A stretch of 64,000 nt of DNA. It comes from a phage. The translations under genes were made by a program, and so were the position numbers. The stretch is from assembly GCA_012490745.1 (NCBI GenBank), contig GCA_012490745.1_3925.1. One strand, given 5' to 3'. Shown here piece after piece: positions 85 through 58,172 of the stretch. The number at the start of each line of letters is the position of its first letter. The first letter of the stretch is position 1. The notes beneath the pieces were generated by a model, which saw only the letters and a list, made by a program, of their open reading frames with translations, did no database searches and had not been told where the DNA came from.

Positions 85-597
85 ATGAAAACTGTAGACG
101 CTACCTTTGAAGTTGTAAAAGAAAAATTTTCCATCATTTACGAAGCAGTTAATTGCTTTGAAGCAAGCCATAATCTTGATAATTGGGAATTTACAGATGA
201 CCATCAAGGCGGTGTGACGATTAAAAATCCTAGCTGTCAGCGTAATGAATTTAAATATGCAATCCCTTTACATTACAGCCTTAAACAGCTTTCAAGTGAC
301 TATGCAAAACAAGGCCGGGAAAACCCATCAAAAGAGGCTTACATCAGCTTACAGAAAGAACTAGAAAGAGATTTAGAGGCTTCAGAATATAACATCGCCG
401 CGAAAGTTGTAGATGCAAACGGTAGCACGGTTTTAGAGAGTTTTTATATTGGTTATGCTTTCGATTGGTGCTATCATGACGGCGATGATTTAGAGGATAG
501 ACTAAAAGAAGAGGTGAACAACGCAGACGCAGAATCTGAAGTATTAGAACGTTTGGAATCGTTGAAAGACTCAGTGATGAATATCTTTAAGAACTAA
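85..597 (+). CDS. hypothetical early protein (170 aa)
   Basis: ORF directly behind cassette with SD GGAG; acidic protein. Confidence 0.6.
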   Translation: MKTVDATFEVVKEKFSIIYEAVNCFEASHNLDNWEFTDDHQGGVTIKNPSCQRNEFKYAIPLHYSLKQLSSDYAKQGRENPSKEAYISLQKELERDLEASEYNIAAKVVDANGSTVLESFYIGYAFDWCYHDGDDLEDRLKEEVNNADAESEVLERLESLKDSVMNIFKN

Positions 598-689
598 ATA
601 GATTTCTTTACACGGGGTTATCAGACTGATAAGATAGCCCCAGATAAAGAGCTTTATTCAAATCAACCCTTAAACTAGGAGATTCTAAA
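598..689 (+). promoter_or_regulatory. Cassette family A variant (hairpin ggggttatcagactgataagatagcccc plus conserved leader)
   Basis: Shares agataaagagcttta...ctaaactaGGAGattctaaaATG with the other cassettes. Confidence 0.55.
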
Positions 690-986
690 ATGAAATTATC
701 AAATCAAGTGCGTGAGAATCTGAGCAAATTACTCAACAAAATTGATTTCATTGAAACATCAAGGAATAGTCATGATGTTATGGAATGGTTACACGGCAAA
801 ATAAAAGGCCGTCGTGTAGTGATTTGCTTATGGAACAGTTGCAGGGAGTATAAAAAACCTGTATTGCAAGTCAATATCTATGATGATACTTTTAAAAGCC
901 CTGTAAAGTCTAAAAACGACTTATTAGAATCCTATGAGATAACTGTAAGTGGCAAAGTATCACGTAAAGAGGAAACACCATGTTAA
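690..986 (+). CDS. hypothetical early protein (98 aa)
   Basis: ORF behind cassette, SD GGAG. Confidence 0.55.
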   Translation: MKLSNQVRENLSKLLNKIDFIETSRNSHDVMEWLHGKIKGRRVVICLWNSCREYKKPVLQVNIYDDTFKSPVKSKNDLLESYEITVSGKVSRKEETPC

Positions 987-1312
987 TGACTGGTATCACT
1001 GCAATCATTGCCATTTTCGCGCTATATAAGGCATATAAAGCCTATAATCTAGCAAATAAGGCAATCACACAGCAGGTTAGAAATAACCTTGTAGAGAGCT
1101 TTCTAGGGCGTCTCAGTGATGAGCAAATAAAGCGGCTAGAGATGAGCTTCAGATACAAAGCGAAAACCTATCAGATAAGTGACATCTTCAAAGATAATTT
1201 TCAGTTAGTTGATGATTATAATTCTCTGATAAATGCTTTAAATGTCAGTGACTTAAAAGACTACTACGCTGTAATTGTTCAAGAGTTGAGCAAACGAAAA
1301 CAAAACTGTTGA
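980..1312 (+). CDS. hypothetical early protein (110 aa), N-terminal hydrophobic segment
   Basis: ATG overlaps upstream stop (translational coupling), SD agaGGAaa; start could be ATG at 986. Confidence 0.5.
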   Translation: MLMTGITAIIAIFALYKAYKAYNLANKAITQQVRNNLVESFLGRLSDEQIKRLEMSFRYKAKTYQISDIFKDNFQLVDDYNSLINALNVSDLKDYYAVIVQELSKRKQNC

Positions 1313-1401
1313 CACTGGTTTTTAGATAGATTAAATTACACATCAACGGGGAGGGAATGACCTTCCCCACTAAATAAAGTCCTAAACTGGAGATTCTGAA
1401 A
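1309..1401 (+). promoter_or_regulatory. Cassette family B: TTGACA-17nt-TAAATT promoter, 5'UTR hairpin ggggagggaatgaccttcccc, conserved leader and SD
   Basis: Sigma70-like -35/-10 spacing; copies at 2170-2267 and 3745-3825 (latter has ttgtca). Confidence 0.6.
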
Positions 1402-1674
1402 ATGTATACTACTAACAACGGTCGCACCTTAAATGTCACCTTGCGTCACTATGTAGACGGTGTGATGTGCTTTGAAGATTTACGGGCTGAGCAACACATC
1501 TTAAATTGGCAAGTTGCAGGACTCCAAAAAACTGCTACAGGATACGGGAAAAAGATTCCAACCAGTTGGAAAGTACACTACGAAGGACGTTTGCGCAGAA
1601 TTTATCAGGATGTGCAAAGCAATAGCGCATCGAGTTACATTATAGTAAAAGGCAAAAAACTGCATTTAATGTAA
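1402..1674 (+). CDS. hypothetical early protein (90 aa)
   Basis: ORF behind cassette B. Confidence 0.55.
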   Translation: MYTTNNGRTLNVTLRHYVDGVMCFEDLRAEQHILNWQVAGLQKTATGYGKKIPTSWKVHYEGRLRRIYQDVQSNSASSYIIVKGKKLHLM

Positions 1675-1760
1675 AGTACTTTACAAGGGGCTTATAGTTC
1701 GATAAAGTAAGCCCCAGATAAAGAGCTTTACCACTAAATCCTAAATTGGAGAACTTAAAA
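1675..1760 (+). promoter_or_regulatory. Cassette family A copy
   Basis: Near-identical to 1-84. Confidence 0.6.
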
Positions 1761-2165
1761 ATGGCTATTAATAACCGTGAATTATCAATTTTAAAAGCAC
1801 GTTTGACCGTTAACCGGATTAATGTTATCACGTCATCAGCACCAGATGAAACACTGCAAAACATTATTGGGAAGATTCAAAGTGTTATCTTAGACGTTGA
1901 AAGCGTAAAAAATTCATTGGCTGACGTTGCAGCAGGTATCACACTAGACGGTGCGCAATATGAAATGTCCGACATGTTAGGCAAATCTAAGGTAATGAAT
2001 AAAGAGTTAGATTTGAAAATGTTCCGATTTGCTGTTAAAGTGTGGCTATCTGTCGAGTATGATGCTAACTTTGCAATCGCTGACTTTTTCGCCACTTGGT
2101 TGCAGCGTAATTTGACTAATCATGACTTCCGCGATATCTGTGATGCAATTTATGCAGAACTCTAA
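1761..2165 (+). CDS. hypothetical early protein (134 aa)
   Basis: ATG at 1761 sits at the conserved cassette position; the ORF-track start 1746 is a TTG inside the cassette. Confidence 0.55.
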   Translation: MAINNRELSILKARLTVNRINVITSSAPDETLQNIIGKIQSVILDVESVKNSLADVAAGITLDGAQYEMSDMLGKSKVMNKELDLKMFRFAVKVWLSVEYDANFAIADFFATWLQRNLTNHDFRDICDAIYAEL

Positions 2166-2169
2166 AAAA

Positions 2170-2267
2170 ATTTTGTTGACACTGGTTTTTAGATAGATTA
2201 AATTACACATCAACGGGGAGGGAATGACCTTCCCCACTAAATAAAGTCCTAAACTGGAGATTCAAAA
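2170..2267 (+). promoter_or_regulatory. Cassette family B copy
   Basis: TTGACA at 2175 plus 5'UTR hairpin, near-identical to 1309-1401. Confidence 0.6.
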
Positions 2268-2471
2268 ATGGCTATTATTAATGGTTTAACCATTGAAACT
2301 ACACACATCAAAGATATCAAAGTTGGCGATATAGTCCTTTCCCACGGCGTAGAAAAAACTGTCACTGCAAAGGATATCAAAGAGGATTCTTTCATGGGTA
2401 GGACTCTCTTCGGTGATTCTTATTGCTTAGGCTATCTTGCAGTTTTAAAAGTTGTCAAAAATAACAAATAA
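2268..2471 (+). CDS. hypothetical early protein (67 aa)
   Basis: ORF behind cassette B. Confidence 0.5.
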   Translation: MAIINGLTIETTHIKDIKVGDIVLSHGVEKTVTAKDIKEDSFMGRTLFGDSYCLGYLAVLKVVKNNK

Positions 2472-2557
2472 AGTACTTTACAAGGGGCTTAAAAGTTGAT
2501 AACTTAAGCCCCAGATAAAGAGCTTTACCACTAAATCCTAAACTGGAGATTCTAAAA
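2472..2557 (+). promoter_or_regulatory. Cassette family A copy (hairpin loop variant)
   Basis: Stem ggggctta/taagcccc conserved, loop differs. Confidence 0.55.
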
Positions 2558-2806
2558 ATGATGAACTACTTTAACATTCCCGATACCTGTAGATTATTGA
2601 CACAAGAAGAAAATTTGGGTAAACCTTTCATTTACCACATGCCAGATAACACGGCAAAAACTTATAGTTACAATGTTAACCGTTTCACCGCATACGCTGC
2701 AAAGAACGGCTATAGGTTGGTTACTCAAAAAGTAATGCTGGTTACAACTGCTGGCGAGATTCCTACAGTTGCAGTCAAACTAGTTTTCTCAAAGAAAGTT
2801 AAATAA
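2558..2806 (+). CDS. hypothetical early protein (82 aa)
   Basis: ORF behind cassette A. Confidence 0.5.
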   Translation: MMNYFNIPDTCRLLTQEENLGKPFIYHMPDNTAKTYSYNVNRFTAYAAKNGYRLVTQKVMLVTTAGEIPTVAVKLVFSKKVK

Positions 2807-2891
2807 AGTACTTTACAAGGGGCTTATAGTTCGATAAAGTAAGCCCCAGATAAAGAGCTTTACTACTCAATCCTAAACTGGAGATTCAAAA
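2807..2891 (+). promoter_or_regulatory. Cassette family A copy
   Basis: Near-identical to 1-84. Confidence 0.6.
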
Positions 2892-3434
2892 ATGAAATGT
2901 TATCACGGAACTACTCAAGAAAATTTCCTCAACCTGATTAATAACGGTGATAAACCATCAGGCGCATGGAATTGTTCGGATATGGACGGCAATTTTTACG
3001 TGTATCCAGAAAATAAAATCTATGGCGACGATGATGAAGAGATAACATCGGAGGGCATTCAGCAAGCTCTAGGGAACGCCACTATTACGGCGGCCTTCCA
3101 GATGAAAACCCAAAATATTGTTATCTTAGAACTCGATATTCCAGATGATGAGCTAAATGATGATTATTCTTGTGATAATATGTCGAGTGTAGCAAGTTTT
3201 ACAGAGTACTTTGATGTAAACTGGATTAAAAAGGTCTATACAACAGAGTTTAACGCTATGTATTCGCCTTTTTGTCTTCCTTCACTGGATAACCCAAATA
3301 TGAACTATCTTGATGAGACATTAGAACTACTTGCTAAAAGTGTTCAACAGTCGGACAGTATTCAGGTTTTTTGTGACATCATGGATACACTGACAGGAAA
3401 CATCGCAGAAGAGGATTTAAAGAGCTTTTTCTAA
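2892..3434 (+). CDS. hypothetical early protein (180 aa)
   Basis: ORF behind cassette A. Confidence 0.55.
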   Translation: MKCYHGTTQENFLNLINNGDKPSGAWNCSDMDGNFYVYPENKIYGDDDEEITSEGIQQALGNATITAAFQMKTQNIVILELDIPDDELNDDYSCDNMSSVASFTEYFDVNWIKKVYTTEFNAMYSPFCLPSLDNPNMNYLDETLELLAKSVQQSDSIQVFCDIMDTLTGNIAEEDLKSFF

Positions 3435-3466
3435 AAACCTATGCAATCACCTTATAAACACTATTT

Positions 3467-3486
3467 AGCCCCTTACAGGGGCTTTT
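3467..3486 (+). terminator. Rho-independent terminator-like hairpin agcccctt-aca-ggggct followed by T run
   Basis: GC stem plus tttt downstream of the 2892-3434 stop. Confidence 0.5.
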
Positions 3487-3500
3487 GGGAGGCTTAAATC

Positions 3501-3734
3501 ATGCTTACAACCGTTTACCTCATCCTTTCTATTTGTAACGGTCATTCATGCGATTTTAAAGGGCTTGAAGAGTTTACAGGAAGTAAAGAAAATGCTATTC
3601 AAGTTTGCCAGATAGCAAGACAAGACTATCCCGCTAGTGATGATATACAATGTTACTTTAAGACAGAAGATGAAGACGGTATCTATTTTGACAGCGTAGA
3701 TGGTCAGTATGAAATTATCATTGAAAAAGACTAG
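3501..3734 (+). CDS. hypothetical early protein (77 aa)
   Basis: ORF with SD gGGAGG; Cys-containing small protein. Confidence 0.5.
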   Translation: MLTTVYLILSICNGHSCDFKGLEEFTGSKENAIQVCQIARQDYPASDDIQCYFKTEDEDGIYFDSVDGQYEIIIEKD

Positions 3735-3744
3735 ACAAGCCTGA

Positions 3745-3825
3745 TAAAAATCTGTAAATTGTCAATCAACGGGGAGGGAATGACCTTCCCCACTAAGTAC
3801 AATCCTTAAACTAGGAGATTCAAAA
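3745..3825 (+). promoter_or_regulatory. Cassette family B copy (ttgtca variant)
   Basis: 5'UTR hairpin ggggagggaatgaccttcccc plus conserved leader. Confidence 0.5.
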
Positions 3826-4167
3826 ATGGCTTATGTAACCGTAATTACCGATAAAGAAAATTCATCTTGGTCAACTCAAGTAAGTGATAAGATGTCACCT
3901 ATGCAGTGCCTAAAATACTTTGAGCAGTGGAACAAAGGCGAGGATGTCAGCCCCTTTCAAGTGATGCAAATCATCCATACAGATAACGAAGGGAATAAAA
4001 CGGTTTTAAATAGTGAGTACTACGCAAGCCGTTTTGAAACTAGAAGTAAAACAATGAAGCTTTTACGTGAATCCGGTTATGCCCATATCGCCGCGCTAAT
4101 CTGGGATGACCTGCTAAAAAGACAGCGTATCAGCTATGTAAAACCTGAAAAAATATTCATCAGTTAA
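3826..4167 (+). CDS. hypothetical early protein (113 aa)
   Basis: ORF behind cassette. Confidence 0.55.
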   Translation: MAYVTVITDKENSSWSTQVSDKMSPMQCLKYFEQWNKGEDVSPFQVMQIIHTDNEGNKTVLNSEYYASRFETRSKTMKLLRESGYAHIAALIWDDLLKRQRISYVKPEKIFIS

Positions 4168-4189
4168 TCAATAACTTACAAAAAACTTT

Positions 4190-4386
4190 TAAAAAAGTGT
4201 TGACAATACCCATTGACATTGGTAACTTTGTTCGAGGGGGTTATCTAAAAGGGATTCACTTAAAAGATTCTTTATAGATAAGCTTAAAAAATTGCTTGCA
4301 ATCAGCTATCAAAACAAGTAAATTACTAATCAACGGGAGGGATGACCTCCCCACTAAATAAAAATCCTTAAACTAGGAGAGTCAAA
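4190..4386 (+). promoter_or_regulatory. Composite region: tandem TTGACA boxes (gttgacaatacccattgacattgg), hairpin gggagggatgacctcccc, conserved leader
   Basis: Two -35-like hexamers 14 nt apart, then family C cassette (taaattactaatcaacgggagg...). Confidence 0.5.
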
Positions 4387-4917
4387 ATGAACAAGTTTAA
4401 AGCTATCAACTTCATTCGTTCAAATGCTGTAATGTCTAAGCCTGTAAAAGATACATATGAATTCCGTTGTAATGGGGTACATTTCGCAACAATCACCAAA
4501 TCAGAAAACGGGGCTTATTACGTTCATCGTCGTAATGTCTCAACCGTTGTAGTCTCTCACTTTATGCAAGCTGTAGCGGAATTATTACCGTTATTCTTAG
4601 AGATTTATCTAGATGAGTGTAAAAACGTTCACAACCACGTTAAAAACCTTTTAAACGGTTATAAAATGGCTTATGAACGTTCTATCAAGTCACTAAACAA
4701 GTTTTACAATGCACCTGCAAATACTGTTTCAATGGCTTATGATGTAAACGGTGAGTTAGTTAGTCTCTTTAAAGTGGAAGAAATTAAACTGTATAATTTA
4801 CGTCCTAGTGGTTACTCTAAGACTCTTGGTGAAGGTTTAACGTTCAATATCAAGAACTTAGAAAAAACTTTAAAAGATATTGAAAAAGATATTGACGAGA
4901 CAATCAAAAGTCTGTAA
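4387..4917 (+). CDS. hypothetical early protein (176 aa)
   Basis: ORF behind cassette, SD aGGAGa. Confidence 0.55.
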   Translation: MNKFKAINFIRSNAVMSKPVKDTYEFRCNGVHFATITKSENGAYYVHRRNVSTVVVSHFMQAVAELLPLFLEIYLDECKNVHNHVKNLLNGYKMAYERSIKSLNKFYNAPANTVSMAYDVNGELVSLFKVEEIKLYNLRPSGYSKTLGEGLTFNIKNLEKTLKDIEKDIDETIKSL

Positions 4918-4982
4918 ATTACTAATCAACGGGAGGCGATAACCTCCCCACTAAATAAAACCCTTAAACTAGGAGATTCAAG
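4918..4982 (+). promoter_or_regulatory. Cassette family C (taaattactaatcaacgggaggNgatNacctcccc...ctaGGAGattcaaNATG)
   Basis: Copies at 4310-4386 and 5247-5311. Confidence 0.55.
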
Positions 4983-5246
4983 ATGGAAAACGTAGAATTA
5001 ACCACACTTTTACAAATTGCAACCGACAAAGAAGATGTAGCATTATTTCACCGTATTGAAAGTGATTTGTTCAATGGTGAAATCATCAAAGAATCTTACG
5101 AAGTTGTCGGATTCAAAGATGGTAAAGCGTTTGGCTTTTTTGACCTCGATAAAGGCAACGCTGTTACAAAATATGATGTTTTATCTTGTGAGATTCTTAC
5201 AAAATACAACGAAAAAAGGCTTGCAACATACGCCAATATGCAGTAA
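4983..5246 (+). CDS. hypothetical early protein (87 aa)
   Basis: ORF behind cassette C. Confidence 0.5.
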   Translation: MENVELTTLLQIATDKEDVALFHRIESDLFNGEIIKESYEVVGFKDGKAFGFFDLDKGNAVTKYDVLSCEILTKYNEKRLATYANMQ

Positions 5247-5311
5247 ATTACTAATCAACGGGAGGGATGACCTCCCCACTAAATAAAACCCTTAAACTAG
5301 GAGATTCAAAA
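5247..5311 (+). promoter_or_regulatory. Cassette family C copy
   Basis: Near-identical to 4918-4982. Confidence 0.55.
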
Positions 5312-5560
5312 ATGGCAACTATCCGCGCTACTGTTAACGAGTTCGGTTTTTCCTCTCTGGATGTTAAATTTGACATTGCAGGCACTGATAACGCCTTTGA
5401 AATGGTGAAATGTCTTATCAGTCAGACCATCAAAGACTATAATCCTTCGGATGAGTTCTGGGAGGAAACAAAACAAGAAGTTCTCAAGGATGGTTATACT
5501 TATCACTATTGGGGAGAAAAAATCGTCTCCCTGTACTACAACAAACAAGATTATAACTAA
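5312..5560 (+). CDS. hypothetical early protein (82 aa)
   Basis: ATG at the conserved cassette position; the ORF-track start 5267 reads through the cassette. Confidence 0.55.
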   Translation: MATIRATVNEFGFSSLDVKFDIAGTDNAFEMVKCLISQTIKDYNPSDEFWEETKQEVLKDGYTYHYWGEKIVSLYYNKQDYN

Positions 5561-5598
5561 TCGACGCAGCGGGGCTATTTAGCCCCAGATACCCTAAC

Positions 5599-5623
5599 AG
5601 CCCCTATTTAAAGGGGCTTTTTT
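5599..5623 (+). terminator. Rho-independent terminator (agcccct-attta-aaggggct + ttttt); a second hairpin at 5571-5586
   Basis: GC stem-loop followed by T run after the last early gene. Confidence 0.6.
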
Positions 5624-5625
5624 AC

Positions 5626-7236
5626 GTCTATCGAATCCTTATACAATCCCTTTCCCTCACCTTTCCAGAATCTTATCAGACCTTAAAAGCAATAACTCTA
5701 TAGTCTACTCTATAACCTCTTATCAAATCAACTTAAATATAAGCCCATAACCCGAAAGGGAAGGGCAACCCCTTAAACGCTCTATAACGCCCTATAACAG
5801 CCTTATCAACCTAACTTAAGGGGTTGCATTAACTCACCCTAAAAAGCCCTTCCTAGAGCTTCCTAGAACCTTAAAAGAATCTTATAAGGGTGTAAGCTTT
5901 ATTATCTCGTTAGCTATCTTGTGAACTACTAAACAAGCCCCTTGATAGTAACTGAAAAGTATGTTATAGGGGCTATAAAGTTACTTCAAAGTTGCTTAAA
6001 AGTTACGTAAATGCTAGCCCCCTTAACATTTTCTTAACAATTTCTTAACAAACCCTACATAGTTATGCTTTTAAGGCACTTGTTAGCAACTTGTTAGCCC
6101 CTTGTTAAATCTCTGTCAAGACCACGTAAAAGCCTTGTAAGAACCTTTGACATAGTCTTTAAAGCCCCTGTAAAGCCCTATAAAGAGGTATCTGTACAGT
6201 TGGGGTGTAATTACTAGGAAGAGGCTTAAAAGAGCTTACAAGGGGCTATAGAGAGCTTTTAAGAGGGCTATTTAGAGAATCACTAAGAAAGAGAGGGAAC
6301 GATAAGAAAAGAGATAGTGACCATGTTAATAGCTTGTTAAAAAGATTAAACACTTGTTAGAAACTTGTTAATTATCTTAACAAAATAACTCTTAAAAATT
6401 AACTTGTTAGCTCTTGTTAGTCATCTGTTAAGACTCTGTAAAGACCATGTATCGTCTGTTAAGAAACTGTTAAGCCCTTGTTAGTTATGTTAAGAATCTG
6501 TTAAGACCTCTGAAGAGATGTTAAGAGATTGAGAGAGTTGTTAAGAGATTGTTAAGGATATTTTAAAATTCTGCAAAGTACTTGTAAGGGAGCTGTTAAG
6601 GGCTACCAAGCAGATATACATCTTCTACAGATATTTTTCAGTTCCTTCAAAGACCCTAAAAAATGACTTGATAGTCCTATTTTATAAAAATTTTAAAAAT
6701 CTGAATAATTACCTATACAGTCTTTCTAAAATACAGGTAATAACAGGCTTATAAGATACCTTGTTAGTACCGTGTTAGACCTTGTGAGATAAGGTCTGTA
6801 AAGATATTCCTGTTAAGTTTGTTAAAACAGTCTATATAGAGGCTTAGTAGCACCTAGTGAACACCTATAGAGAGTATCATAGCTGACATAATGGGTTACT
6901 GTTAAGTAACACAGATAACCTAGAGATTAAGAGGTGTATAGGAGCTTCTAAGAGAGTGTAGAGAGATGGTTAAGGTGATTGTATAGGTTGTTAAGAAGGC
7001 TTGTTAGAAGAGTGTTTAGAGGGCTATTTAGAAGGGCTATACAGAGGGCTATTAAGACCACTAGATAGTTACTAAGATACTATATAGTACTATATAACTA
7101 TATAGAGAGTAAGATTAAGAAGGTTGTTAAGAAGGGTAGATATTTTATTCACATATGATGGTGACCCAGAGGTTGGGACAACCGATAAAATTTTACTCAA
7201 TAAAAAGCCCCCGATTAAGGAGGCTCTTAAGATATT
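5626..7236. repeat. ORF-free region dense in short direct repeats (CTTGTTAG / CTGTTAAG / TGTTAAGA and GGGCTAT(T/A)(T/A)AGA families)
   Basis: No ORF of 60 aa or more on either strand in the track; dozens of 7-9 nt repeat copies, clustered at 6000-6600. Confidence 0.7.
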
Positions 7237-7860
7237 TTAAATCAGTGTTTCCAGAACTGTTTTTAGGGATGACTTGGTTGTCTGATAAAAATGAGTGAAT
7301 CCGTTGTTGTTATCGAATATCTGCATCATGATATCATCTCCCTTGATTGGGTACACTCGGATATCATAGTGAAAACCATTAAAGACACAAGAACCACTAC
7401 AGAATGCACTAAAGTCAGCCACTGAGATATACTCTTCATGTCCTGTGATTTTTATACAAACACCTTTACTCGGTCTCTTAGGGTTGATATCTTCCATCAC
7501 AGACATACTCTGTCCACCAAGAGATACCATAGTGACCACTTTACGGTTCTTCTGTTTAAAGTACATCTTAACTTTCTGCAAAGTGTCTTCATAGAATGGA
7601 TAAGACCTTTCTACAAAGATTCCTTCAAGTGGCTCTTTACCATTTTCAACTTCTCGGTTATGCCGTACTGCAAAGATAATTTGTTCGAACCAGTCAAGAT
7701 TTTCTTCGGAGAGTGCTTCCCGAACATCCTTCCAGTCAAGTACTAAGTAGTTACCTTCAACTTCTTTTAAGTTATCTTTTTCCATATCTATCACACCATT
7801 ATCGTAAAACTTGATATTCTGGTACTGCGAATTTATTACTATTGTTCTTGATGAGGTCAT
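7237..7860 (-). CDS. hypothetical protein (up to 207 aa; true start probably an internal Met near 7785)
   Basis: Long ORF; its 5' end overlaps the upstream gene by 62 nt. Confidence 0.5.
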   Translation of the reverse strand: MTSSRTIVINSQYQNIKFYDNGVIDMEKDNLKEVEGNYLVLDWKDVREALSEENLDWFEQIIFAVRHNREVENGKEPLEGIFVERSYPFYEDTLQKVKMYFKQKNRKVVTMVSLGGQSMSVMEDINPKRPSKGVCIKITGHEEYISVADFSAFCSGSCVFNGFHYDIRVYPIKGDDIMMQIFDNNNGFTHFYQTTKSSLKTVLETLI

Positions 7861-8263
7861 CCTCTGAAACTAAAAATGTAATACCACATAAGTGTCTGTA
7901 ACGACTATCATACTCGAATATCTTAAACAGATATTTACCATCATGATAAACCTGTTGCACTTCACCTTCTGCAACAATCTCGCCTGTAATAAAATTTTTT
8001 AGTTTATATACATTACCAACTTTAGGTACTGTTTTCATCTCAGGCTCTTTTAGTGCTACACCTATTTTTGCATCACCGAGTAAATGAGAACTCTCAAAAG
8101 CTACGTGTTTCATATAAGCTTCTGAGCATTCCCAAATAAAACAGTGTACAAGAACCTTAGCAGCATGTCTTGAGCAGTTCAACTTATCACAAATTTCTGT
8201 GTACATCTCATCTTTAGTAGAATTGTCAAGCATTGCTCTTTGCACTACTTCTTTAATTTTCAT
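7799..8263 (-). CDS. hypothetical protein (154 aa)
   Basis: ORF in a co-directional minus-strand block. Confidence 0.5.
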   Translation of the reverse strand: MKIKEVVQRAMLDNSTKDEMYTEICDKLNCSRHAAKVLVHCFIWECSEAYMKHVAFESSHLLGDAKIGVALKEPEMKTVPKVGNVYKLKNFITGEIVAEGEVQQVYHDGKYLFKIFEYDSRYRHLCGITFLVSEDDLIKNNSNKFAVPEYQVLR

Positions 8264-15009: not shown

Positions 15010-15236
15010 TTTTCAGTTCTCCTGCGATTTATAATTTTGCTGCAATAGAGAAACGAAGTAAACTCACTGGAAGAAACCATTAAGTGTTGTTCACTAGATT
15101 GAGCCATTGCCCTGAAATACATTCCAGTCAAAGCATCATAGTGACTATTCTTTCCAATTGAGGTTATATAGCCATGACTCTTTGCAGTTTGATATAAATC
15201 TATAATATCTGCGATTTCTAATTGGGAACTACACAT
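15003..15236 (-). CDS. hypothetical protein (77 aa)
   Basis: ORF. Confidence 0.4.
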   Translation of the reverse strand: MCSSQLEIADIIDLYQTAKSHGYITSIGKNSHYDALTGMYFRAMAQSSEQHLMVSSSEFTSFLYCSKIINRRRTEKC

Positions 15237-15400
15237 AGATAATCCTCTTGTCTTCTGTAATTTTGAAAGAACAGGTACAGACCAATTTCAGAGGATGAAT
15301 AGTAGATTAACTCTACCCTTTTTGATTCCTTACAGTGATTGGTATTCTTACCTTTCTTCGGTTTATTTGATTTTCTCATTAAGTCTCCTTTGTAGAACAA
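15218..15400 (-). CDS. hypothetical small basic protein (60 aa)
   Basis: ORF, first gene after the divergent promoter region. Confidence 0.35.
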   Translation of the reverse strand: MFYKGDLMRKSNKPKKGKNTNHCKESKRVELIYYSSSEIGLYLFFQNYRRQEDYLCVVPN

Positions 15401-15474
15401 GGCAGACCTACAGCTTTAACTAAGATGGTACAGTAATCCATACAACAAGTCAAGAACTATTGCAAGTTAAAAAA

Positions 15475-15516
15475 GTTGTTGACAAAGTACTTGACAAGGT
15501 GTAGGCTTATAAATAC
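15475..15516. promoter_or_regulatory. Divergent promoter region with tandem TTGACA boxes (gttgttgacaaagtacttgacaaggtg)
   Basis: A-tract plus two -35-like hexamers 13 nt apart; near-identical motif at 58173-58207. Confidence 0.5.
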
Positions 15517-15628
15517 TTAGAAGATAACTTAAAAGGTTCCTCTAAAAAGGCTATTTAAACAGATATCTTTCTGGATATCTATCTTTTATCTTAAAAGCCT
15601 TTTAAGAGGTCTTATAAGAGGCATACCA

Positions 15629-16000
15629 ATGAAAAACAGAACAAACAAAGGCCAGTTTAAAAAAGGCCAATCTGGAAACCCATCTGGAAGACCAAAAGGC
15701 TCTCGCAACAAAAGCTCACTTGTAAAAGCTCAACTGACCATTGACAATTCTGCTGAGTTTGCTGCAAAGTTATTTGAAGCGATTGTTACAAGGGATGCTG
15801 CTAAGCTTGCAGAGTTCGGGTTAAACACAGACGATGTAACCATCAAGAGTATGATTGAGGTCGGTAAAACTATCATGACTCACTCAGCAGGTGAGATGAA
15901 AGCAATTGCAGCAGACACTAAGAAGACTCCTGATAACAGTGGTCAGTCTCAGACAGACAACAAACCAACGTTCTCTGCTGTTGCAACCCTTAAAAAATAA
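15629..16000 (+). CDS. hypothetical protein with N-terminal KGQSGNPSGRPKG motif (123 aa)
   Basis: Basic Gly/Pro-rich N-terminus; the motif recalls uncharacterised phage protein families. Confidence 0.55.
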   Translation: MKNRTNKGQFKKGQSGNPSGRPKGSRNKSSLVKAQLTIDNSAEFAAKLFEAIVTRDAAKLAEFGLNTDDVTIKSMIEVGKTIMTHSAGEMKAIAADTKKTPDNSGQSQTDNKPTFSAVATLKK

Positions 16001-17662: not shown

Positions 17663-17739
17663 CTCTGTTTAGCTCAGCTTGGTAGAGCGTTCCGTTTGGG
17701 GCGGTAAGGCCGGAGGTTCAAGTCCTCCAACAGAGACCA
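17663..17739 (+). tRNA. tRNA-Pro (anticodon TGG)
   Basis: Acceptor ctctgtt/aacagag, T-arm ggagg-ttcaagt-cctcc, anticodon loop tttgggg, CCA encoded. Confidence 0.6.
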
Positions 17740-17746
17740 AATTAAT

Positions 17747-17824
17747 GTTCCAGTAGACAAAATGGTAAAGTCACCACTCTTTCAAAGTGGATATCTGAGG
17801 GTTCAAATCCCTTCTGGAACGCCA
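17747..17824 (+). tRNA. tRNA-Glu (TTC)
   Basis: Acceptor gttccag/ctggaac, anticodon arm ccact-ctttcaa-agtgg, T-loop ttcaaat, discriminator G. Confidence 0.7.
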
Positions 17825-17915
17825 GTTTTGACAGAAGACCAATTACAGCAAACTTAATCTTATTCATCTGAAGGTAAATCGGACAAAGAAGAGATTTGGT
17901 CTGGTCATTAAGAAT

Positions 17916-17992
17916 TGCGGGTATAGAGAAAGGGCGTCTCACATGTCTCATTAGCATGGTATCGGCAGGTTCGACTCCTGCACCCGCCTCCA
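17916..17992 (+). tRNA. tRNA-Met (CAT); possibly initiator
   Basis: Anticodon arm catgt-ctcatta-gcatg, T-arm gcagg-ttcgact-cctgc, 1:72 mismatch. Confidence 0.55.
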
Positions 17993-18069
17993 ATTTTGCA
18001 GAAGACCGTATTCAGCAACAAAATACTTTTTGCGGATAAAAGAAAAAACACGGTCTGGCAATGTATTAA

Positions 18070-18146
18070 GGTTAGGAAGCACATAAGGTATGTGCGGTCG
18101 CCTGTTAAGCGAATGGCACAGGGTTCGAATCCCTGACTAACCGCCA
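18070..18146 (+). tRNA. tRNA-Asn (GTT)
   Basis: Anticodon loop ctgttaa, T-arm caggg-ttcgaat-ccctg, CCA encoded. Confidence 0.65.
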
Positions 18147-18155
18147 AATTTAAAT

Positions 18156-18243
18156 GTGTCGTTATCCCGTAGATGGTAGCGGTGGGGACTGTAAATCCCT
18201 TGTCATTGAGACTCGGTAGGTTCGACTCCTACACGGCACACCA
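18156..18243 (+). tRNA. tRNA-Tyr (GTA), class II
   Basis: Anticodon arm gggga-ctgtaaa-tccct, long variable arm ttgtcattgagactcg, T-arm gtagg-ttcgact-cctac. Confidence 0.7.
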
Positions 18244-18249
18244 AATAAA

Positions 18250-18327
18250 GGTTATGTAGTTTAATCTGGTTAAAATACTCCCCTGTCACGGGAGATGATG
18301 AGGGTTCAAATCCCTTCGTAACCGCCA
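18250..18327 (+). tRNA. tRNA-Asp (GTC)
   Basis: Anticodon arm ctccc-ctgtcac-gggag, T-loop ttcaaat, discriminator G. Confidence 0.7.
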
Positions 18328-18643
18328 AATTATAATAAGTATTTCAAAATGATGTTTGAGAGGGCTATTTTAGCCCCTCCCTTAAAGAGTTCTTACGAGT
18401 ATTCTTTAAAGGAGCAGAAGACCAAATTCAGCAAGTACGTATGATATTTTCAAGCCAATTTAATTTTGAAAAAATTTATAAAACTTGGTCTGGCTCAACA
18501 ATTTTACAGAAGACCGTTTACAGCAAAACTTAAACAATCTATTTCTCCGGTAAAGAAAAGGCGAAGGTTCGATTCCTTCACTCGGCAGATGTCGAGTTGG
18601 TGTAATGGTAGCACTTAAGATGATAAACAACGGTCTGGTAATT

Positions 18644-18779
18644 ATCTTTGTAGATAAGTTATTAAGCTTACCTGTGAGTATGCGACCACAAAGGGTGAAA
18701 GGGTAAATTCTAGATTTAAACCCAAAAAGGCACATCGCTACAGACCTTAAGCAAGTCTGGGTAGCTTATCTACAAAGAT
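18644..18779 (+). ncRNA. Candidate structured small RNA: 15-bp perfect inverted repeat (atctttgtagataag / cttatctacaaagat) enclosing 106 nt with internal hairpins
   Basis: Perfect long-range stem plus internal hairpins cagac-cttaagcaa-gtctg and gggt...accc; lies between tRNA genes. Confidence 0.4.
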
Positions 18780-18787
18780 AATTTAAT

Positions 18788-18863
18788 GGAAGTGTAGCAG
18801 AATGGTGATGCGGCAGACTTTTAATCTGACAGGCGATGGGTTCGAATCCCTCCACTTCTACCA
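18788..18863 (+). tRNA. tRNA-Lys (TTT)
   Basis: Acceptor ggaagtg/cacttct, anticodon loop cttttaa, T-loop ttcgaat; paralog of 20023-20098. Confidence 0.6.
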
Positions 18864-18867
18864 AAAT

Positions 18868-18944
18868 GGTTCAGTCGCAGATAAGGTAATGCAAGGGTCT
18901 CATAAGCCCTATGAATGTGGGTTCGATTCCCATCTGAACCTCCA
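18868..18944 (+). tRNA. tRNA with CAT anticodon (elongator Met, or Ile2 if lysidine-modified)
   Basis: Acceptor ggttcag/ctgaacc, anticodon arm agggt-ctcataa-gccct, T-loop ttcgatt. Confidence 0.6.
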
Positions 18945-18945
18945 A

Positions 18946-19021
18946 GCTGGTATAGTTAAGAAGGTTATAACACTCCCCTGATAAGGGAACATCGGTGGTT
19001 CGATTCCACCTACCAGTACCA
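18946..19021 (+). tRNA. tRNA-Ile (GAT)
   Basis: D-arm gtta...taac, anticodon loop ctgataa, T-arm ggtgg-ttcgatt-ccacc. Confidence 0.65.
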
Positions 19022-19029
19022 ATTTCAAT

Positions 19030-19075
19030 AAAGTTGTTGACACTGAGATGTGACTACTTTATAGTAACCTTAGTT
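19030..19075 (+). promoter_or_regulatory. Internal promoter TTGACA-17nt-TATAGT within the tRNA array
   Basis: aaagttgTTGACActgagatgtgactacttTATAGTaacc. Confidence 0.55.
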
Positions 19076-19269
19076 TTCGTTGCGTAGCGTCTATTTTGCA
19101 AATTTAAAATAAATGCAAACGACAATGTTTTTCTGGCAGTAGCTTGATAGGCTAAACACCAGTGAGGTCTTCCAATCCCTCATCAAAGAATTTGGCGTAC
19201 TAGCCCACGGTATGATTAATAAGGTGGGCATCTTTAAGGGCTTTCTAAGAGAGTCTTTAAAGATAATTA

Positions 19270-19351
19270 CGGGGCGTATCTCAGCGGTCTTCTAAACCGC
19301 CGTTAACCGAGTAAGTGGAGTATGCGGGTTCGAGTCCTGCCGCCTCGACCA
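19270..19351 (+). tRNA. atypical tRNA-like gene (candidate Arg-TCT); cloverleaf not resolved
   Basis: Good acceptor cggggcg/cgcctcg and T-arm gcggg-ttcgagt-cctgc; perfect hairpin gcggt-cttctaa-accgc sits where the D-arm should be. Confidence 0.4.
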
Positions 19352-19494
19352 ATTTAGTTAGCAGATTACTTAGACGACCTAAGCGGGTCTTCCTGTAGGG
19401 AGGTGGTCTGTATCTCATGTTTTCCAGAACATGTAAATAATCTGAGAAGGGGCTTTACAGTGTTGAGATAATACGGTAAGCTTCGAATTATAGT

Positions 19495-19577
19495 ATGGGA
19501 CGATGTTAAGACTCTAAGGCATGAGCAACGGCCTCCAAAACCGTTTCAAAGGGGTTCAACTCCTCCGTCCCATGCCA
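19495..19577 (+). tRNA. tRNA-like gene, candidate Trp (CCA), with 7-8 extra nt in the 5' region
   Basis: Perfect acceptor atgggac/gtcccat, anticodon loop ctccaaa, T-loop ttcaact. Confidence 0.45.
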
Positions 19578-19590
19578 AAGTCTTATTAGG

Positions 19591-19680
19591 GGTAGGTAGC
19601 GGCTAATGGCAGCCAAACAGTCTTGAAAACTGTTGCCACTGTAGAGATACGGTGAGGGTTCGACTCCTTTACTTACCGCC
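19591..19680 (+). tRNA. tRNA-Ser (TGA), class II
   Basis: Anticodon arm acagt-cttgaaa-actgt, long variable arm, T-arm gaggg-ttcgact-ccttt, discriminator G. Confidence 0.65.
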
Positions 19681-19937
19681 TAATAAGATTTTTAAAGCCA
19701 AGCTTCATTCGGATGTTGCTTTGGTATACCGCGTGTATTGTCGTACACACAGATAAAGCACCTAGTAGGTGTCACGGAGAAGAGATAATATCAAGCTCTC
19801 CAAAGGTTCTAGTCACCGGATTAAACAAGACTATGCAAAGGCCTTTTTAGGTCTTTTTAGAGGGCTTCTAAGGTTATTACAGCTTGTTGTGGAACCTTGT
19901 TGCTTAGGTTCTTAGAAGTTCTCTAAAAAGATTTAAT

Positions 19938-20015
19938 GGGAGATTGACGGTAATTGGTAAACCTACCATCCTTAGAAGTTGGTGTTTGAGGGTTCGAATC
20001 CCTTGTCTCCTACCA
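19938..20015 (+). tRNA. tRNA with TAG anticodon (Leu) but class I length
   Basis: Anticodon arm ccatc-cttagaa-gttgg, Leu-like D-loop aattggtaaac, discriminator A, T-arm gaggg-ttcgaat-ccctt. Confidence 0.5.
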
Positions 20016-20022
20016 AATTAAT

Positions 20023-20098
20023 GCAGGTGTAGCAAAATGGTTATGCGGCTGACTCTTAATCAGTAAGACGATGGGTTCAATTCCCTCCACCTGTACCA
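20023..20098 (+). tRNA. tRNA-Lys (CTT)
   Basis: Anticodon arm gctga-ctcttaa-tcagt, T-loop ttcaatt, acceptor gcaggtg/cacctgt. Confidence 0.6.
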
Positions 20099-20104
20099 AA
20101 CAAT

Positions 20105-20180
20105 GGGGATGTAGTTTACATGGTTAAAACATAAGTTTTGCAAACTTAAGTACAGGGTTCAATTCCCTGCTTCTCCACCA
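20105..20180 (+). tRNA. tRNA-Ala (TGC)
   Basis: D-arm gttt...aaac, anticodon arm taagt-tttgcaa-actta, T-arm caggg-ttcaatt-ccctg. Confidence 0.65.
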
Positions 20181-20186
20181 ATTAGT

Positions 20187-20261
20187 GCATCCATAGTTTA
20201 AACGGGAAAATTACAGTCTTCCAAACTGAGGTTGAGGGTTCGATTCCCTCTGGATGCTCCA
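20187..20261 (+). tRNA. tRNA-Gly (TCC)
   Basis: Perfect acceptor gcatcca/tggatgc, anticodon loop cttccaa, T-arm gaggg-ttcgatt-ccctc. Confidence 0.65.
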
Positions 20262-20266
20262 AACAA

Positions 20267-20344
20267 TGCTGCTTTCGTATAATTGGCTATTACACATCCC
20301 TTGTAAGGATGGAAATGCAGGTTCGAGTCCTGTGAGCAGCACCA
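20267..20344 (+). tRNA. tRNA-Thr (TGT)
   Basis: Anticodon arm catcc-cttgtaa-ggatg, T-loop ttcgagt. Confidence 0.65.
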
Positions 20345-20440
20345 ATTCAGAGGTCAAGTGAAAGACCGCTTTGAGTCAACTGAAGACCGTAACAAATTCC
20401 ACGGAGTTGAGTTAGCGGCACAACTCCAGACCTCTTTCAT

Positions 20441-20515
20441 ACTCGCTTAGTTTATATGGTAAAACATCACCCTTACAAGATGAAGAAAAAGGTTCAAGTC
20501 CTTTAGTGAGTACCA
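20441..20515 (+). tRNA. tRNA-Val (TAC)
   Basis: D-arm gttt-atatggta-aaac, anticodon loop cttacaa, T-arm aaagg-ttcaagt-ccttt. Confidence 0.6.
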
Positions 20516-20516
20516 T

Positions 20517-20594
20517 GTTCCAGTATCCCAATTGGCAGAGGATGCAAGCTCAAACCTTGTACTAGTGACGGTTCGAATCCGTCTTGGAACACCA
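20517..20594 (+). tRNA. tRNA with CAA anticodon (Leu) but short variable arm
   Basis: Anticodon arm (t)gcaag-ctcaaac-cttgt(a), Leu-like D-loop aattggcagag, discriminator A, T-arm gacgg-ttcgaat-ccgtc. Confidence 0.5.
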
Positions 20595-20599
20595 ATTTT

Positions 20600-20675
20600 G
20601 CAGGATTAGTTCAAATGGATAGAGCAACAGTCTACGAAGCTGTTAATAGGGGTTCGAATCCCTTATCCTGCGCCA
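20600..20675 (+). tRNA. tRNA-Arg (ACG)
   Basis: Perfect acceptor gcaggat/atcctgc, anticodon arm acagt-ctacgaa-gctgt, T-loop ttcgaat. Confidence 0.65.
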
Positions 20676-20694
20676 ATTTAAAGAGGCTATTTAG

Positions 20695-21252
20695 ATGAGA
20701 TATTTGAAGTATGCTTCATGGATTTTCTTAGCTTTGTTAGAGCCATTTGCAGCAATCTTAGCAGTTATCTTAGCACCTTTTGTAGTTCCATTCTACAGTG
20801 AGAAGAAAGGACACTTACCTTTCGGGTTCAGATGGATGGAGACATATGACAACCCAATTGATGGTGATGAAGGTCACGTTAAAAGATGGGCTAATATTAG
20901 ATGGATTGGTAAACTAGGTGTCTACATGCAAAGAGTCGGATGGCTCTGGAGAAACAAAGCTTATAACTTCTCTTACCATGTATTAGGAAGAGATGTAAGA
21001 GATGTTACTAAGTGGAAAGGTAATATCAACGTAAGTTCTGACCCCGAAGATAATCAGACAGGTTATCTCCTAATGTGGAACAGTAATGCTTGGGGATTAT
21101 TCGCTTTTATCCCATCAATTAAAATCTTTGGTAAACAGTTTTACTGGAGAATTTATATTGGATGGAAACTTAAAAGTGTTGTCCCAGAAGAAAGAGCATT
21201 CTCAAGGGAAAGAGTTATGTTGGCATTCTTTATTCATCCACTGAGAAAGTAA
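20695..21252 (+). CDS. hypothetical Trp-rich membrane protein (185 aa) embedded in the tRNA array
   Basis: ORF with SD aaGAGG; N-terminal TM helix (WIFLALLEPFAAILAVILAPFVVPF). Confidence 0.55.
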   Translation: MRYLKYASWIFLALLEPFAAILAVILAPFVVPFYSEKKGHLPFGFRWMETYDNPIDGDEGHVKRWANIRWIGKLGVYMQRVGWLWRNKAYNFSYHVLGRDVRDVTKWKGNINVSSDPEDNQTGYLLMWNSNAWGLFAFIPSIKIFGKQFYWRIYIGWKLKSVVPEERAFSRERVMLAFFIHPLRK

Positions 21253-21260
21253 AGATTTAA

Positions 21261-21336
21261 AGGGGATTAGTTTACAAGGTTAAAACCTCGGTCTTTGAAA
21301 TCGAAGAAGTTGGTTCAATTCCAACATCCCCCGCCA
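21261..21336 (+). tRNA. tRNA-Gln (TTG)
   Basis: Anticodon arm tcggt-ctttgaa-atcga, T-arm gttgg-ttcaatt-ccaac, A1:C72 mismatch. Confidence 0.55.
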
Positions 21337-21338
21337 AT

Positions 21339-21416
21339 GCTCCATTACTCCAATTGGCAGAGAGGCCAGACTTAAAATCTGTGTTATGTATCGGTTCGAA
21401 TCCGATATGGAGTACC
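21339..21416 (+). tRNA. tRNA with TAA anticodon (Leu) but short variable arm
   Basis: Paralog of 20517-20594 (D-loop aattggcagag), anticodon loop cttaaaa, discriminator A. Confidence 0.5.
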
Positions 21417-21422
21417 AAATTT

Positions 21423-21497
21423 AGCGGTATAGCATAACTGGCAATGCAACAGTCTCTGAAGCTGTCCTATTAAGGTTCAAATCCTTATGCCGCTGCC
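21423..21497 (+). tRNA. tRNA-Gln (CTG)
   Basis: D-arm gcat...atgc, anticodon arm acagt-ctctgaa-gctgt, T-arm taagg-ttcaaat-cctta. Confidence 0.55.
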
Positions 21498-21529
21498 ACT
21501 TCTAAGGATTCTTACGAGAGTCCTTAAAT

Positions 21530-21605
21530 GTGGCCTTATCATAAAAGGTAATGACCCATGCTGTGAACATGGTCTATACGGGTTCAAATCCCGTAGGTCA
21601 CCCCA
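21530..21605 (+). tRNA. tRNA-His (GTG)
   Basis: Anticodon arm ccatg-ctgtgaa-catgg, discriminator C73, T-arm acggg-ttcaaat-cccgt. Confidence 0.65.
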
Positions 21606-21610
21606 ATTTA

Positions 21611-21688
21611 TAGTCCAAGTAGCTTATATGGTTAAAGCGCGTGTCTGAAAAACATGAGAAGAGGGTTCAAATCCCACTGGACTACCAA
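21611..21688 (+). tRNA. tRNA-Phe (GAA)
   Basis: Perfect acceptor tagtcca/tggacta, anticodon loop ctgaaaa, T-loop ttcaaat. Confidence 0.65.
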
Positions 21689-21703
21689 TTTCAAAGGTGC
21701 TTA

Positions 21704-22438
21704 ATGAAAGAGATGACAGAACAAGGTAAGGAGATTTTTAATCTCTTAAAAACTGGTAAAGGGTTTTCTAACCCCCTTATTACTGGTGCAGCAGTTCTCG
21801 GTGGAACCGTAGCTGCCTCTACATCACTTGTAAGCTCTATTAGCTCTGTATCAGACCCTACAGTAAAGGATAAGCTTGTTGCTGCTGGACTTACAACAGT
21901 TCTGCTTAACAGCTTTACCACGAGTCTGACAAGCACTACATCAACTACCAAAACACTAACAGATTACGGTCAAAAGTCCATTGATGAGTTTTCATCACGT
22001 ATGCAGGTAGCAAAAGGTTATTCTAATGTTATGGGTGCAGCAGGTGAACAAGTTGGCTGTACACCATTTAGTGGTATTATGGGTGTTGCTACAGAGTATG
22101 GTCAAAAAGCTATTGATACGATTAACAGTACACTAGATAGTGTTAATGGTGTGTTAAGTGACTTACAAGATGCTATTGATAAGGGTCTTGATACTGTTTC
22201 TGATTTAGCTAATCAGGCTGTTAGCAAGATTAATGAAGGTATCTCAAAGATTACAGCTTATGCAGATGAAGTTGTGCAGATGATTGAAGAAGAAGCTGCC
22301 CTTATTGCAGAGTACCTTAAAACGAATATCAATGGGTTCTTAGCAGGTATCTTACCAGACTGGTTTGATGATGCTTGTAAAACTGGTGTGATTGACACTA
22401 TTGCAACACCAGAAATGAAGAACGCATTACAGAAATAA
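21704..22438 (+). CDS. hypothetical Ser/Thr-rich protein (244 aa)
   Basis: The ORF-track start 21641 lies inside tRNA-Phe; ATG 21704 has SD aaaGGtg 5 nt upstream. Confidence 0.5.
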   Translation: MKEMTEQGKEIFNLLKTGKGFSNPLITGAAVLGGTVAASTSLVSSISSVSDPTVKDKLVAAGLTTVLLNSFTTSLTSTTSTTKTLTDYGQKSIDEFSSRMQVAKGYSNVMGAAGEQVGCTPFSGIMGVATEYGQKAIDTINSTLDSVNGVLSDLQDAIDKGLDTVSDLANQAVSKINEGISKITAYADEVVQMIEEEAALIAEYLKTNINGFLAGILPDWFDDACKTGVIDTIATPEMKNALQK

Positions 22439-22439
22439 T

Positions 22440-22532
22440 GGAAGATTAACCCTAAAAGGTAAGGGAGCAGTTTGCTAAACTGCCAGTAGCTGAGAAATCG
22501 GTGTACCAGTTCAAGTCTGGTATCTTCCTCCA
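22440..22532 (+). tRNA. tRNA-Ser (GCT), class II
   Basis: Perfect acceptor ggaagat/atcttcc, anticodon arm gcagt-ttgctaa-actgc, long variable arm, T-arm accag-ttcaagt-ctggt. Confidence 0.7.
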
Positions 22533-22536
22533 ATTT

Positions 22537-23035: not shown

Positions 23036-23056
23036 TTCTATTTGCGGAGGTGCTTA

Positions 23057-58145: not shown

Positions 58146-58172
58146 ACATTACTGCAAAAAATTATAAAAAGC

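Follow-up and report, generated by a model that had tools for sequence, protein, structure and literature searches.

A short direct terminal repeat filled with helically phased motifs at the probable concatemer junction of a Felixounavirus genome

Phages of the T7, T3, and SP6 type have a concatemer junction that holds a short direct terminal repeat (DTR) with arrays of short repeats beside it; the terminase cuts this junction site-specifically, and the repeat is duplicated by synthesis. This picture reportedly goes back to Dunn and Studier in 1983, Chung and Hinkle in 1990, and Casjens and Gilcrease in 2009. The closest described systems are found in Felixounavirus, which comprises the Felix O1-like myoviruses of Escherichia, Salmonella, and Shigella, and in which DTRs are described for UAB_Phi87, Pr103Blw, and Felix O1/FO1a. 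Here, we examine a 1.6-kb gene-free region at positions 5626 to 7236 of a 64,000-nucleotide stretch of phage DNA (contig GCA_012490745.1_3925.1 of GenBank assembly GCA_012490745.1), which is referred to as the window and supplies all coordinates not assigned to another record; "the rest" is the remaining 62.4 kb. Judged by its sequence, the source phage is a Felixounavirus, and the region is matched at 76-94% identity in 257 phage records, nearly all of them from this group. The region is very probably the concatemer junction of the phage, made up of a right-end flank, the DTR, and a left-end flank set between convergent terminators. The DTRs of the three phages named above are 88-96% identical in sequence to the repeat described here, share its junctions, and occupy the corresponding place between the same two convergent blocks of genes. 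At 591 bp the present repeat falls within the family range of 567-658 bp, and no essential difference separates it from them.

Homology to the mapped ends of relatives identifies positions 6017 to 6607 as a short, exact DTR of 591 bp. Its boundaries are those common to the duplicated or annotated ends of the relatives, which begin with GCCCCCTTAACA... and finish with ...TGTTAAGGGCTACC. The DTR of vB_EcoM-Pr103Blw was determined with PhageTerm (PMC8303462), and the record of this phage carries an annotated 581-bp "short direct terminal repeat" at 1-581 and again at 87841-88421, which aligns end to end with 6017-6607 and is adjoined by syntenic genes. Exact terminal duplications with identical boundaries, and thus the same sequence at both virion ends, are found in the records of ZX4221 (591 bp), SPJ41 (613 bp), and Pr103Blw (581 bp), which come from different laboratories. 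The records of ECP2307, SLAM_phiST56, GE_vB_7A, pEP20, and ECOH1 have their first or last base precisely where 6017 or 6607 would fall. Fixed, non-permuted ends are thereby indicated by at least eight records with identical boundaries. PhageTerm DTRs are also reported for D4 and E9 (PMC11737134), in both of which the flanking gene lies around 1200 nt from the start of the record, as expected. The "repeat_region" features in the records of garuso and mio (Olsen et al.) were considered as further DTRs and set aside, as they are annotations of short tandem repeats.

Experimental evidence in the group comes from UAB_Phi87, where a DTR of 608 bp was measured by Bal31 digestion and run-off sequencing, and where two of the SpeI fragments, discrete bands of 4322 and 2819 bp, proved sensitive to Bal31 (PMC4837284). 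When the present boundaries are carried over to this phage (JN225449), the segment homologous to the DTR is 614 bp long (locus L037, record positions 15152-15765) and the terminal SpeI fragments are predicted to be 4431 and 2751 bp, these being the same two fragments that flank the region. The GenBank record of UAB_Phi87 begins in the tRNA region rather than at a physical end, and its deposited length is 87,603 bp, while the paper gives 87,669. The large terminases of UAB_Phi87 and Felix O1 are reported to cluster with those of DTR-type phages (PMC4837284), and short terminal repeats were inferred in the Felix O1 paper (Felix O1/FO1a; PMC3185647). In the present phage both junction sequences occur, each exactly once. 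A location near the physical genome end of a terminal-repeat phage, with packaging signals, was one of the candidate roles given in the initial annotation, and it is the one that the comparison bears out, since the zone densest in motifs corresponds base for base to the DTR of the relatives.

The neighboring genes converge on the region. To the left, genes on the + strand run from 85 to 5560, with small orphan genes forming a rightward block; to the right, genes on the - strand run from around 15009 down to 7237. One block ends at 5560 and the other at 7237, so the region lies between two convergent transcription units, each closed by an intrinsic terminator (Table 1). That transcription on either side heads for the ends and is halted by these terminators explains why the region is free of ORFs. 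The lack of any open reading frame (ORF) of 60 codons or more had been remarked on from the start and is correct, as the longest ORF wholly within the region encodes 38 aa; a 47-aa ORF at 7155-7298 merely overlaps the right edge.

It had been proposed that the region is packed with short iterated motifs, and the enrichment statistics, which are far above chance, agree. The motif CTTGTTAG is present in 8 copies in the region and in 1 copy in the rest. For the region, first-order Markov simulations (n = 1000) lead one to expect 0.07 ± 0.25 copies and never gave more than 2. For TGTTA[AG], abbreviated TGTTAR, 27 sites are observed in the region as against 1.9 ± 1.4 in the simulations. The counts of other words in the region and in the rest are 7 and 7 for CTGTTAAG, 8 and 8 for TGTTAAGA, 13 and 18 for TGTTAAG, and 6 and 5 for GGGCTAT. 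A position weight matrix (PWM) trained on the region's own sites, with consensus ACTTGTTAAGAC, gives 31 forward and 10 reverse matches in 5560-7260, compared with about 1.3 per kb per strand elsewhere. Strict 8-mers of the TGTTAAG type number 15 in the region, as against a single copy in the other 5 kb of intergenic DNA. The density of TGTTAR is greatest at 6200-6650, where there are 13-17 sites per 300 nt, in keeping with the earlier placement of the densest zone at 6000-6600.

The motifs are also in register with one another. Spacing was at first described as irregular, a description that must be given up, as the units recur at a regular interval of around 11 bp. Among the offsets that separate repeated 5-mers, 11 bp stands out sharply (61 pairs; the controls average 2.9 and never exceed 8), and further peaks lie at 20-22, 31, 42, and 51. 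The WW, SS, and AA dinucleotides of 6017-6607 have a period of 11.1-11.2 bp, with a power of 15-18, where 306 control windows give 4-5 ± 2. In all, around 25 copies of the TGTTAAG type fill the DTR, three of them inverted at the left end and the remainder forward. With reverse units at the left terminus and forward units at the right terminus, the two termini of the DTR form an inverted repeat.

The DNA of the junction is strongly conserved among relatives. Of 25 full-length relatives, 24 carry both junctions (...^GCCCC and TGTTAAGGGCTACC^AAGCAGATATAC, that is, GGGCTACC^AAGCAGATATAC, where the caret marks the boundary) in identical form, the lone exception (L012) having one substitution that makes it start ACCCC. 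The dodecamer ACGTAAATGCTA, with which the right-end flank ends directly before the left junction, is identical in 21 of these 25 and differs by one substitution in the other 4. Of the blocks that are invariant across 27 sequences from three genera, the two longest include the one at the right junction. Within the genus (25 Felixounavirus sequences), invariant positions make up 53% of 5626-6016 and 77% of 6608-7236, and the three parts of the region span 53-77%; the corresponding figure for adjacent mosaic coding sequence is 8.5%. The region is around 76% identical in Suspvirus (SUSP1 and mistaenkt) and Mooglevirus (Michonne), with the sites in the same positions, while the protein flanking the junction is 50-56% identical in those genera. 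For SUSP1 the identity is about 76% over the region, and for the adjacent protein in its genus about 55%; the non-coding DNA is thus far more conserved than the neighboring genes. The homologous junction of SUSP1 (locus L028, 1860-3553) has a GC content of around 35%; the genome GC of the Suspvirus phage mistaenkt is 47.2%. A search with the flanking protein detected no relatives beyond Felixounavirus, Suspvirus, and Mooglevirus, and Kolesnikvirus of Erwinia phages thus lies outside the comparison.

Conservation is concentrated on the motifs themselves. The TGTTA cores in the DTR are 93-95% identical in Suspvirus and Mooglevirus, as opposed to 71% for non-core positions (Fisher test, p 1e-7 to 5e-9). 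Among relatives, the length of the DTR changes in steps of around 11 bp over the family range (resultant vector length 0.83 at period 11), and units are therefore gained or lost whole, with the phase kept. The features of the region are collected in Table 1.

Table 1. Features of the junction region, in window coordinates
Feature	Position	Strand	Remarks
Intrinsic terminator	5599-5618	+	7-bp stem with 5 GC pairs, then a T-run; closes the rightward block ending at 5560
Unique non-coding right-end flank	5626-6016	.	just inside the DTR in virion DNA; top strand pyrimidine-rich
DTR, 591 bp	6017-6607	.	one copy in concatemer or assembly form, expected at both ends in packaged DNA; from homology to relatives' DTRs
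Three reverse units	6020-6052	-	CTTAACA cores at 6024, 6035, 6046 (11-bp spacing); at left terminus of DTR
First forward array, ~10 units	6068-6183	+	~11-bp spacing; CTTTTAAG, CTTGTTAG twice, CTTGTTAA, CTGTCAAG ... CTGTAAAG, CTATAAAG
Purine-rich spacer	~6190-6320		between the forward arrays; two GGGCTAT units
Second, main forward array, 17 PWM matches (ACTTGTTAAGAC)	6321-6602	+	spacings 9-11, 20, 31, 33, 39 bp; ends in TGTTAAGGGCTACC
AGGGCTACC^AAGCAGATATACA block	6599-6620	.	22 bp, spans the right DTR junction between 6607 and 6608; invariant in 27/27 sequences
Unique non-coding left-end flank	6608-7236	.	just inside the DTR in virion DNA; most conserved part of the region
AT-rich 19-mer CTATTTTATAAAAATTTTA	6677-6695	.	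invariant; ~70 bp outside the right junction
Tandem GGGCTAT(T/A)(T/A)AGA-type units	7015-7058	+	12-13-bp spacing; copy number differs among relatives
Intrinsic terminator	7208-7222	-	closes the leftward gene block ending at 7237; annotated terminator in KhF2 and Michonne

The two flanks carry motifs as well. Variants of CTTATCA, CTATAAC, and CCTTAAAAG are found in 5626-6016; in 6608-7236 there are more TGTTAAG units, together with GGGCTAT units in tandem and the block ACTATATAACTATATAGAGA. The 22-bp block across the right junction is a candidate terminase cleavage or recognition site, and CTATTTTATAAAAATTTTA could be an easily melted or bent element. Two polymorphisms were seen in the left-end flank. 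The unit GGGCTATTTAGAA (12-13 bp, at 7015-7040) is present in zero to two extra copies among relatives. At 6889-6920, a 32-bp sequence, TAATGGGTTACTGTTAAGTAACACAGATAACC, with a GTTAC...GTAAC palindrome is present in 7 of 26 sequences (this phage and 6 of the 25 relatives) and absent from the others, inside a flank that is otherwise almost invariant.

A very probable arrangement can be put together from these observations. Unit genomes are joined at the region in replicating concatemers and cut apart there for packaging. By homology to the relatives, packaged DNA begins at 6017 (5'-GCCCCCTTAACA...), continues rightwards via 6608-7236 into the leftward-transcribed genes, and, after a full circuit of the genome, passes through 5626-6016 into a second copy of 6017-6607, ending ...TGTTAAGGGCTACC-3'. 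The terminase would recognize the conserved junctions TA^GCCCCCTTAACA and TGTTAAGGGCTACC^AAGCAGATATACA, cutting at both boundaries, and the DTR would then be duplicated by DNA synthesis in the manner of T7 to give two copies per packaged genome. With less certainty, the roughly 25 TGTTAAG units, one helical turn apart and almost all in the same direction, may be docking sites to which an oligomeric packaging protein binds cooperatively, with the DNA wrapped around it or stiffened; this protein would be a factor like the small terminase or else the large terminase itself. Such docking would mark the DNA as that of the phage and position the cuts.

The resemblance to T7-type phages lies in the fixed ends, in a terminal repeat that is free of genes and some hundreds of bp long, and in short motifs iterated at the junction. 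The differences are several. The present phage is a myovirus, its sequence is unrelated, and its DTR is around 4 times the 160 bp of T7; the arrays lie within the repeat and are phased at around 11 bp; both adjacent operons point to the ends, without early promoters that read inwards from the leading end; and no small terminase was recognized. The junctions TA^GCCCCCTTAACA and TGTTAAGGGCTACC^AAGCAGATATACA contain an inverted GGGCTA/TGTTAA pair.

A number of points weigh against this interpretation as a whole. The termini of the present phage are taken from its homologues, not from its own reads or virion DNA, and the ends of certain records may have been copied from earlier records instead of being determined independently. 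The prediction for UAB_Phi87 is off by 6 bp in the length of the DTR and by 70-110 bp in the SpeI fragments. The two cuts are asymmetric, with an offset of 4 nt relative to GGGCTA and 2 nt relative to TGTTAA; because they are not mirror images, each end may be made in a step of its own, as in T7. Neither a small terminase nor another DNA-binding protein was found, the 20 flanking ORFs having no Pfam matches and only PHROGs of unknown function, and a small terminase is likewise absent from the annotation of a Pharokka record and from the structure-informed tables of Bas63. For Bas63 the tables of the PhageMaP study, consulted for insertion fitness in the region, list no intergenic values. Finally, an array phased at around 11 bp is equally suited to an origin or to another DNA-binding function.

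The large terminase, TerL, which is assigned by PHROG only, is encoded at 23042-24655. No small terminase was recognized by PHROG or Pfam among the ORFs near it, in a search that was not exhaustive. A 66-aa acidic ORF, probably a coiled coil, lies immediately upstream of TerL at 22835-23035 and is annotated as hypothetical in relatives; it does not look DNA-binding. A cluster of 25 tRNA genes at 17663-22612, with a few small ORFs interspersed, separates the divergent promoter region from the genes for the terminase and the structural proteins.

A useful comparison for how the array might be read is the pac site of SPP1 and SF6. The small terminase forms a ring whose helix-turn-helix motifs are around one helical turn apart, and pac DNA is thought to wrap around it (PMC4737164). 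Repeated boxes and periodically bendable DNA flank the terminase cut there as here, and the spacing of the contacts matches the phasing of around 11 bp. SPP1 differs in that it packages by headful from pac, a mode that leaves permuted, terminally redundant ends, whereas the ends here are fixed. The SPP1 footprint is around 100 bp with few boxes, compared with around 25 units over roughly 540 bp in the DTR, and its TerS gene adjoins pac, while none was found here beside either TerL or the junction. A binding array for a phage DNA-binding protein, as the initial annotation had it, is therefore plausible in so far as the phasing and the core-specific conservation fit, but the binder itself was not found. 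That the units bind a packaging protein is a less certain part of our interpretation. In its fullest form, which we put forward tentatively, the DTR would carry a one-directional lattice of around 540 bp, with about 25 TGTTAAG sites and inverted end caps, coated by a new small terminase or end-binding factor or by TerL alone, in a lineage for which no small terminase is annotated. If so, packaging would be specified by the lattice, which might also anchor the ends of the chromosome or protect them. The signal is kept across at least three genera of Ounavirinae and is more strongly conserved than the neighboring proteins.

Alternatively, the array may bind a nucleoid-type or regulatory protein of the phage or the host for a purpose other than packaging, for example to shield incoming ends from RecBCD by capping them, to act as an insulator for the convergent operons, or to regulate or silence transcription. 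Phasing and core conservation do indicate a protein that reads the sequence, related but distinct units of the CTTAAAAG type are present in other intergenic leaders, and Bas63, also a Felixounavirus, is reported to have no RecBCD inhibitor (bioRxiv 10.1101/2024.10.10.617714). Even so, we consider this unlikely. The strict TGTTAAG-type 8-mers are essentially confined to the region, as counted above, and the array spans the DTR from junction to junction. Sites resembling sigma-70 promoters occur in the region at chance level (8, where 6.7 ± 2.7 are expected), a result that also speaks against the region as a promoter cluster, and no candidate protein was found.

It is also conceivable, though rather improbable, that the array is, or also is, a replication origin, its units serving as iterons for a phage initiator and 6677-6695 as an unwinding element. 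Many short units are directly repeated and helically phased, the invariant AT-rich 19-mer adjoins the array (its presence says nothing about its function), and the non-coding DNA is very strongly conserved. The iterons of origins are typically 17-22 bp long, whereas the unit here is 11 bp with a core of 7-9 bp. The origin of Felix O1-like phages is undefined in the Felix O1 paper (PMC3185647), which leaves room for such a role, but there is no initiator-like gene among the 20 flanking ORFs by PHROG or Pfam, and the replication genes are around 40-50 kb distant. The region holds a single DnaA box, which is the chance level with 7 in the whole 64 kb, and no IHF sites; a scan for Chi motifs gave nothing above chance. 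GC skew over the whole 64 kb tracks the direction of transcription, without an origin signal. The array also coincides exactly with the DTR, which already accounts for its presence.

The terminal repeat of T5 is around 10 kb long and carries pre-early genes that are expressed on first-step transfer. An injection-stop signal inside the terminal repeat, pausing DNA entry after such a transfer, had been among the roles first suggested for the region, and T5 does share repeat-rich non-coding DNA associated with its terminal repeat, a superficial resemblance. The suggestion does not survive comparison and is very improbable, as the repeat here is 0.6 kb (591 bp) and gene-free, with no ORF above 35 aa inside it, and, with the genes beside both ends transcribed towards those ends, a pause in entry would leave no gene to be expressed. 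Equally hard to credit is a non-coding RNA, a set of very short conserved proteins, or an assembly artefact, for although the non-coding DNA is highly conserved and tiny ORFs are annotated there in certain records, the sole Rfam match in 5000-8000, obtained with a permissive E-value, is at chance level, the promoter signal is not above chance and the terminators face inwards on both sides, the longest ORF is 38 aa and the mini-ORFs that are annotated differ between records, and the same sequence is found in more than 250 independently assembled genomes; the initial annotation had named artefact and short conserved proteins as grounds for dropping its view, and neither was found.

Some features elsewhere in the window deserve mention. 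A looser family, CTTAAAAG/CTTTTAAG, is distinct from the DTR-specific TGTTAAG units and is a general intergenic feature of the phage, with 10 copies in the 5 kb of other intergenic DNA and 11 in 57 kb of coding DNA, an enrichment of around 10-fold. Examples follow the tandem -35 early promoters at around 15470 and 58180. The Felix O1 paper lists 57-bp intergenic repeats with words resembling these (PMC3185647). The divergent-promoter regions at 15440-15630 and 58165-58370 have in common a tandem -35 cassette, GTTGACAA(A/T)GTACTTGACAAGGTGT, with TATAAA after the first copy, and the leader after each cassette is packed with CTTAAAAG, CTTTTAAG, CTTATAAG, and GGCTATTTA units. Both cassettes probably act as strong early promoters of the sigma-70 type that have a regulatory leader in common. 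Two copies of a 93-nt element (50242-50334 and 50374-50466), with 80% identity and a distance of 132 bp between them, lie in a gap between genes of the - strand block; the element is made up of an ACC/CCTAACC-rich tract followed by (CTTGTTAAAAG/CTCATTAAAAG)ACCCTCTTAAAGACCTTTTAAAAAGG.

The identity of the element described here is already known, because the Felixounavirus DTR has been published and is annotated in GenBank. The internal array with its phasing of around 11 bp has apparently not been described before, as the literature on this DTR (PMC4837284, PMC8303462, PMC3185647) gives only its length or existence. The polarity of the units and the inverted ends, the unit-wise polymorphism in length, and the conservation across genera are likewise not described in those papers or records, and are incremental findings. 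Clearly the region is real and strongly constrained, yet it is an ordinary kind of element, to be expected in a DTR phage. No small terminase or pac determinant is defined for the Felix O1-type group. The exact chromosome ends, 6017 and 6607, permit the genome to be oriented and annotated correctly and account for the 1.6-kb coding gap. The junction defines the cis-acting DNA that is needed to engineer Felix O1-type phages, reporter phages, and transducing particles for Salmonella and E. coli, and the junctions together with the array of around 11 bp provide concrete, testable candidates for the packaging signals of a group of phages widely used in diagnosis and therapy.

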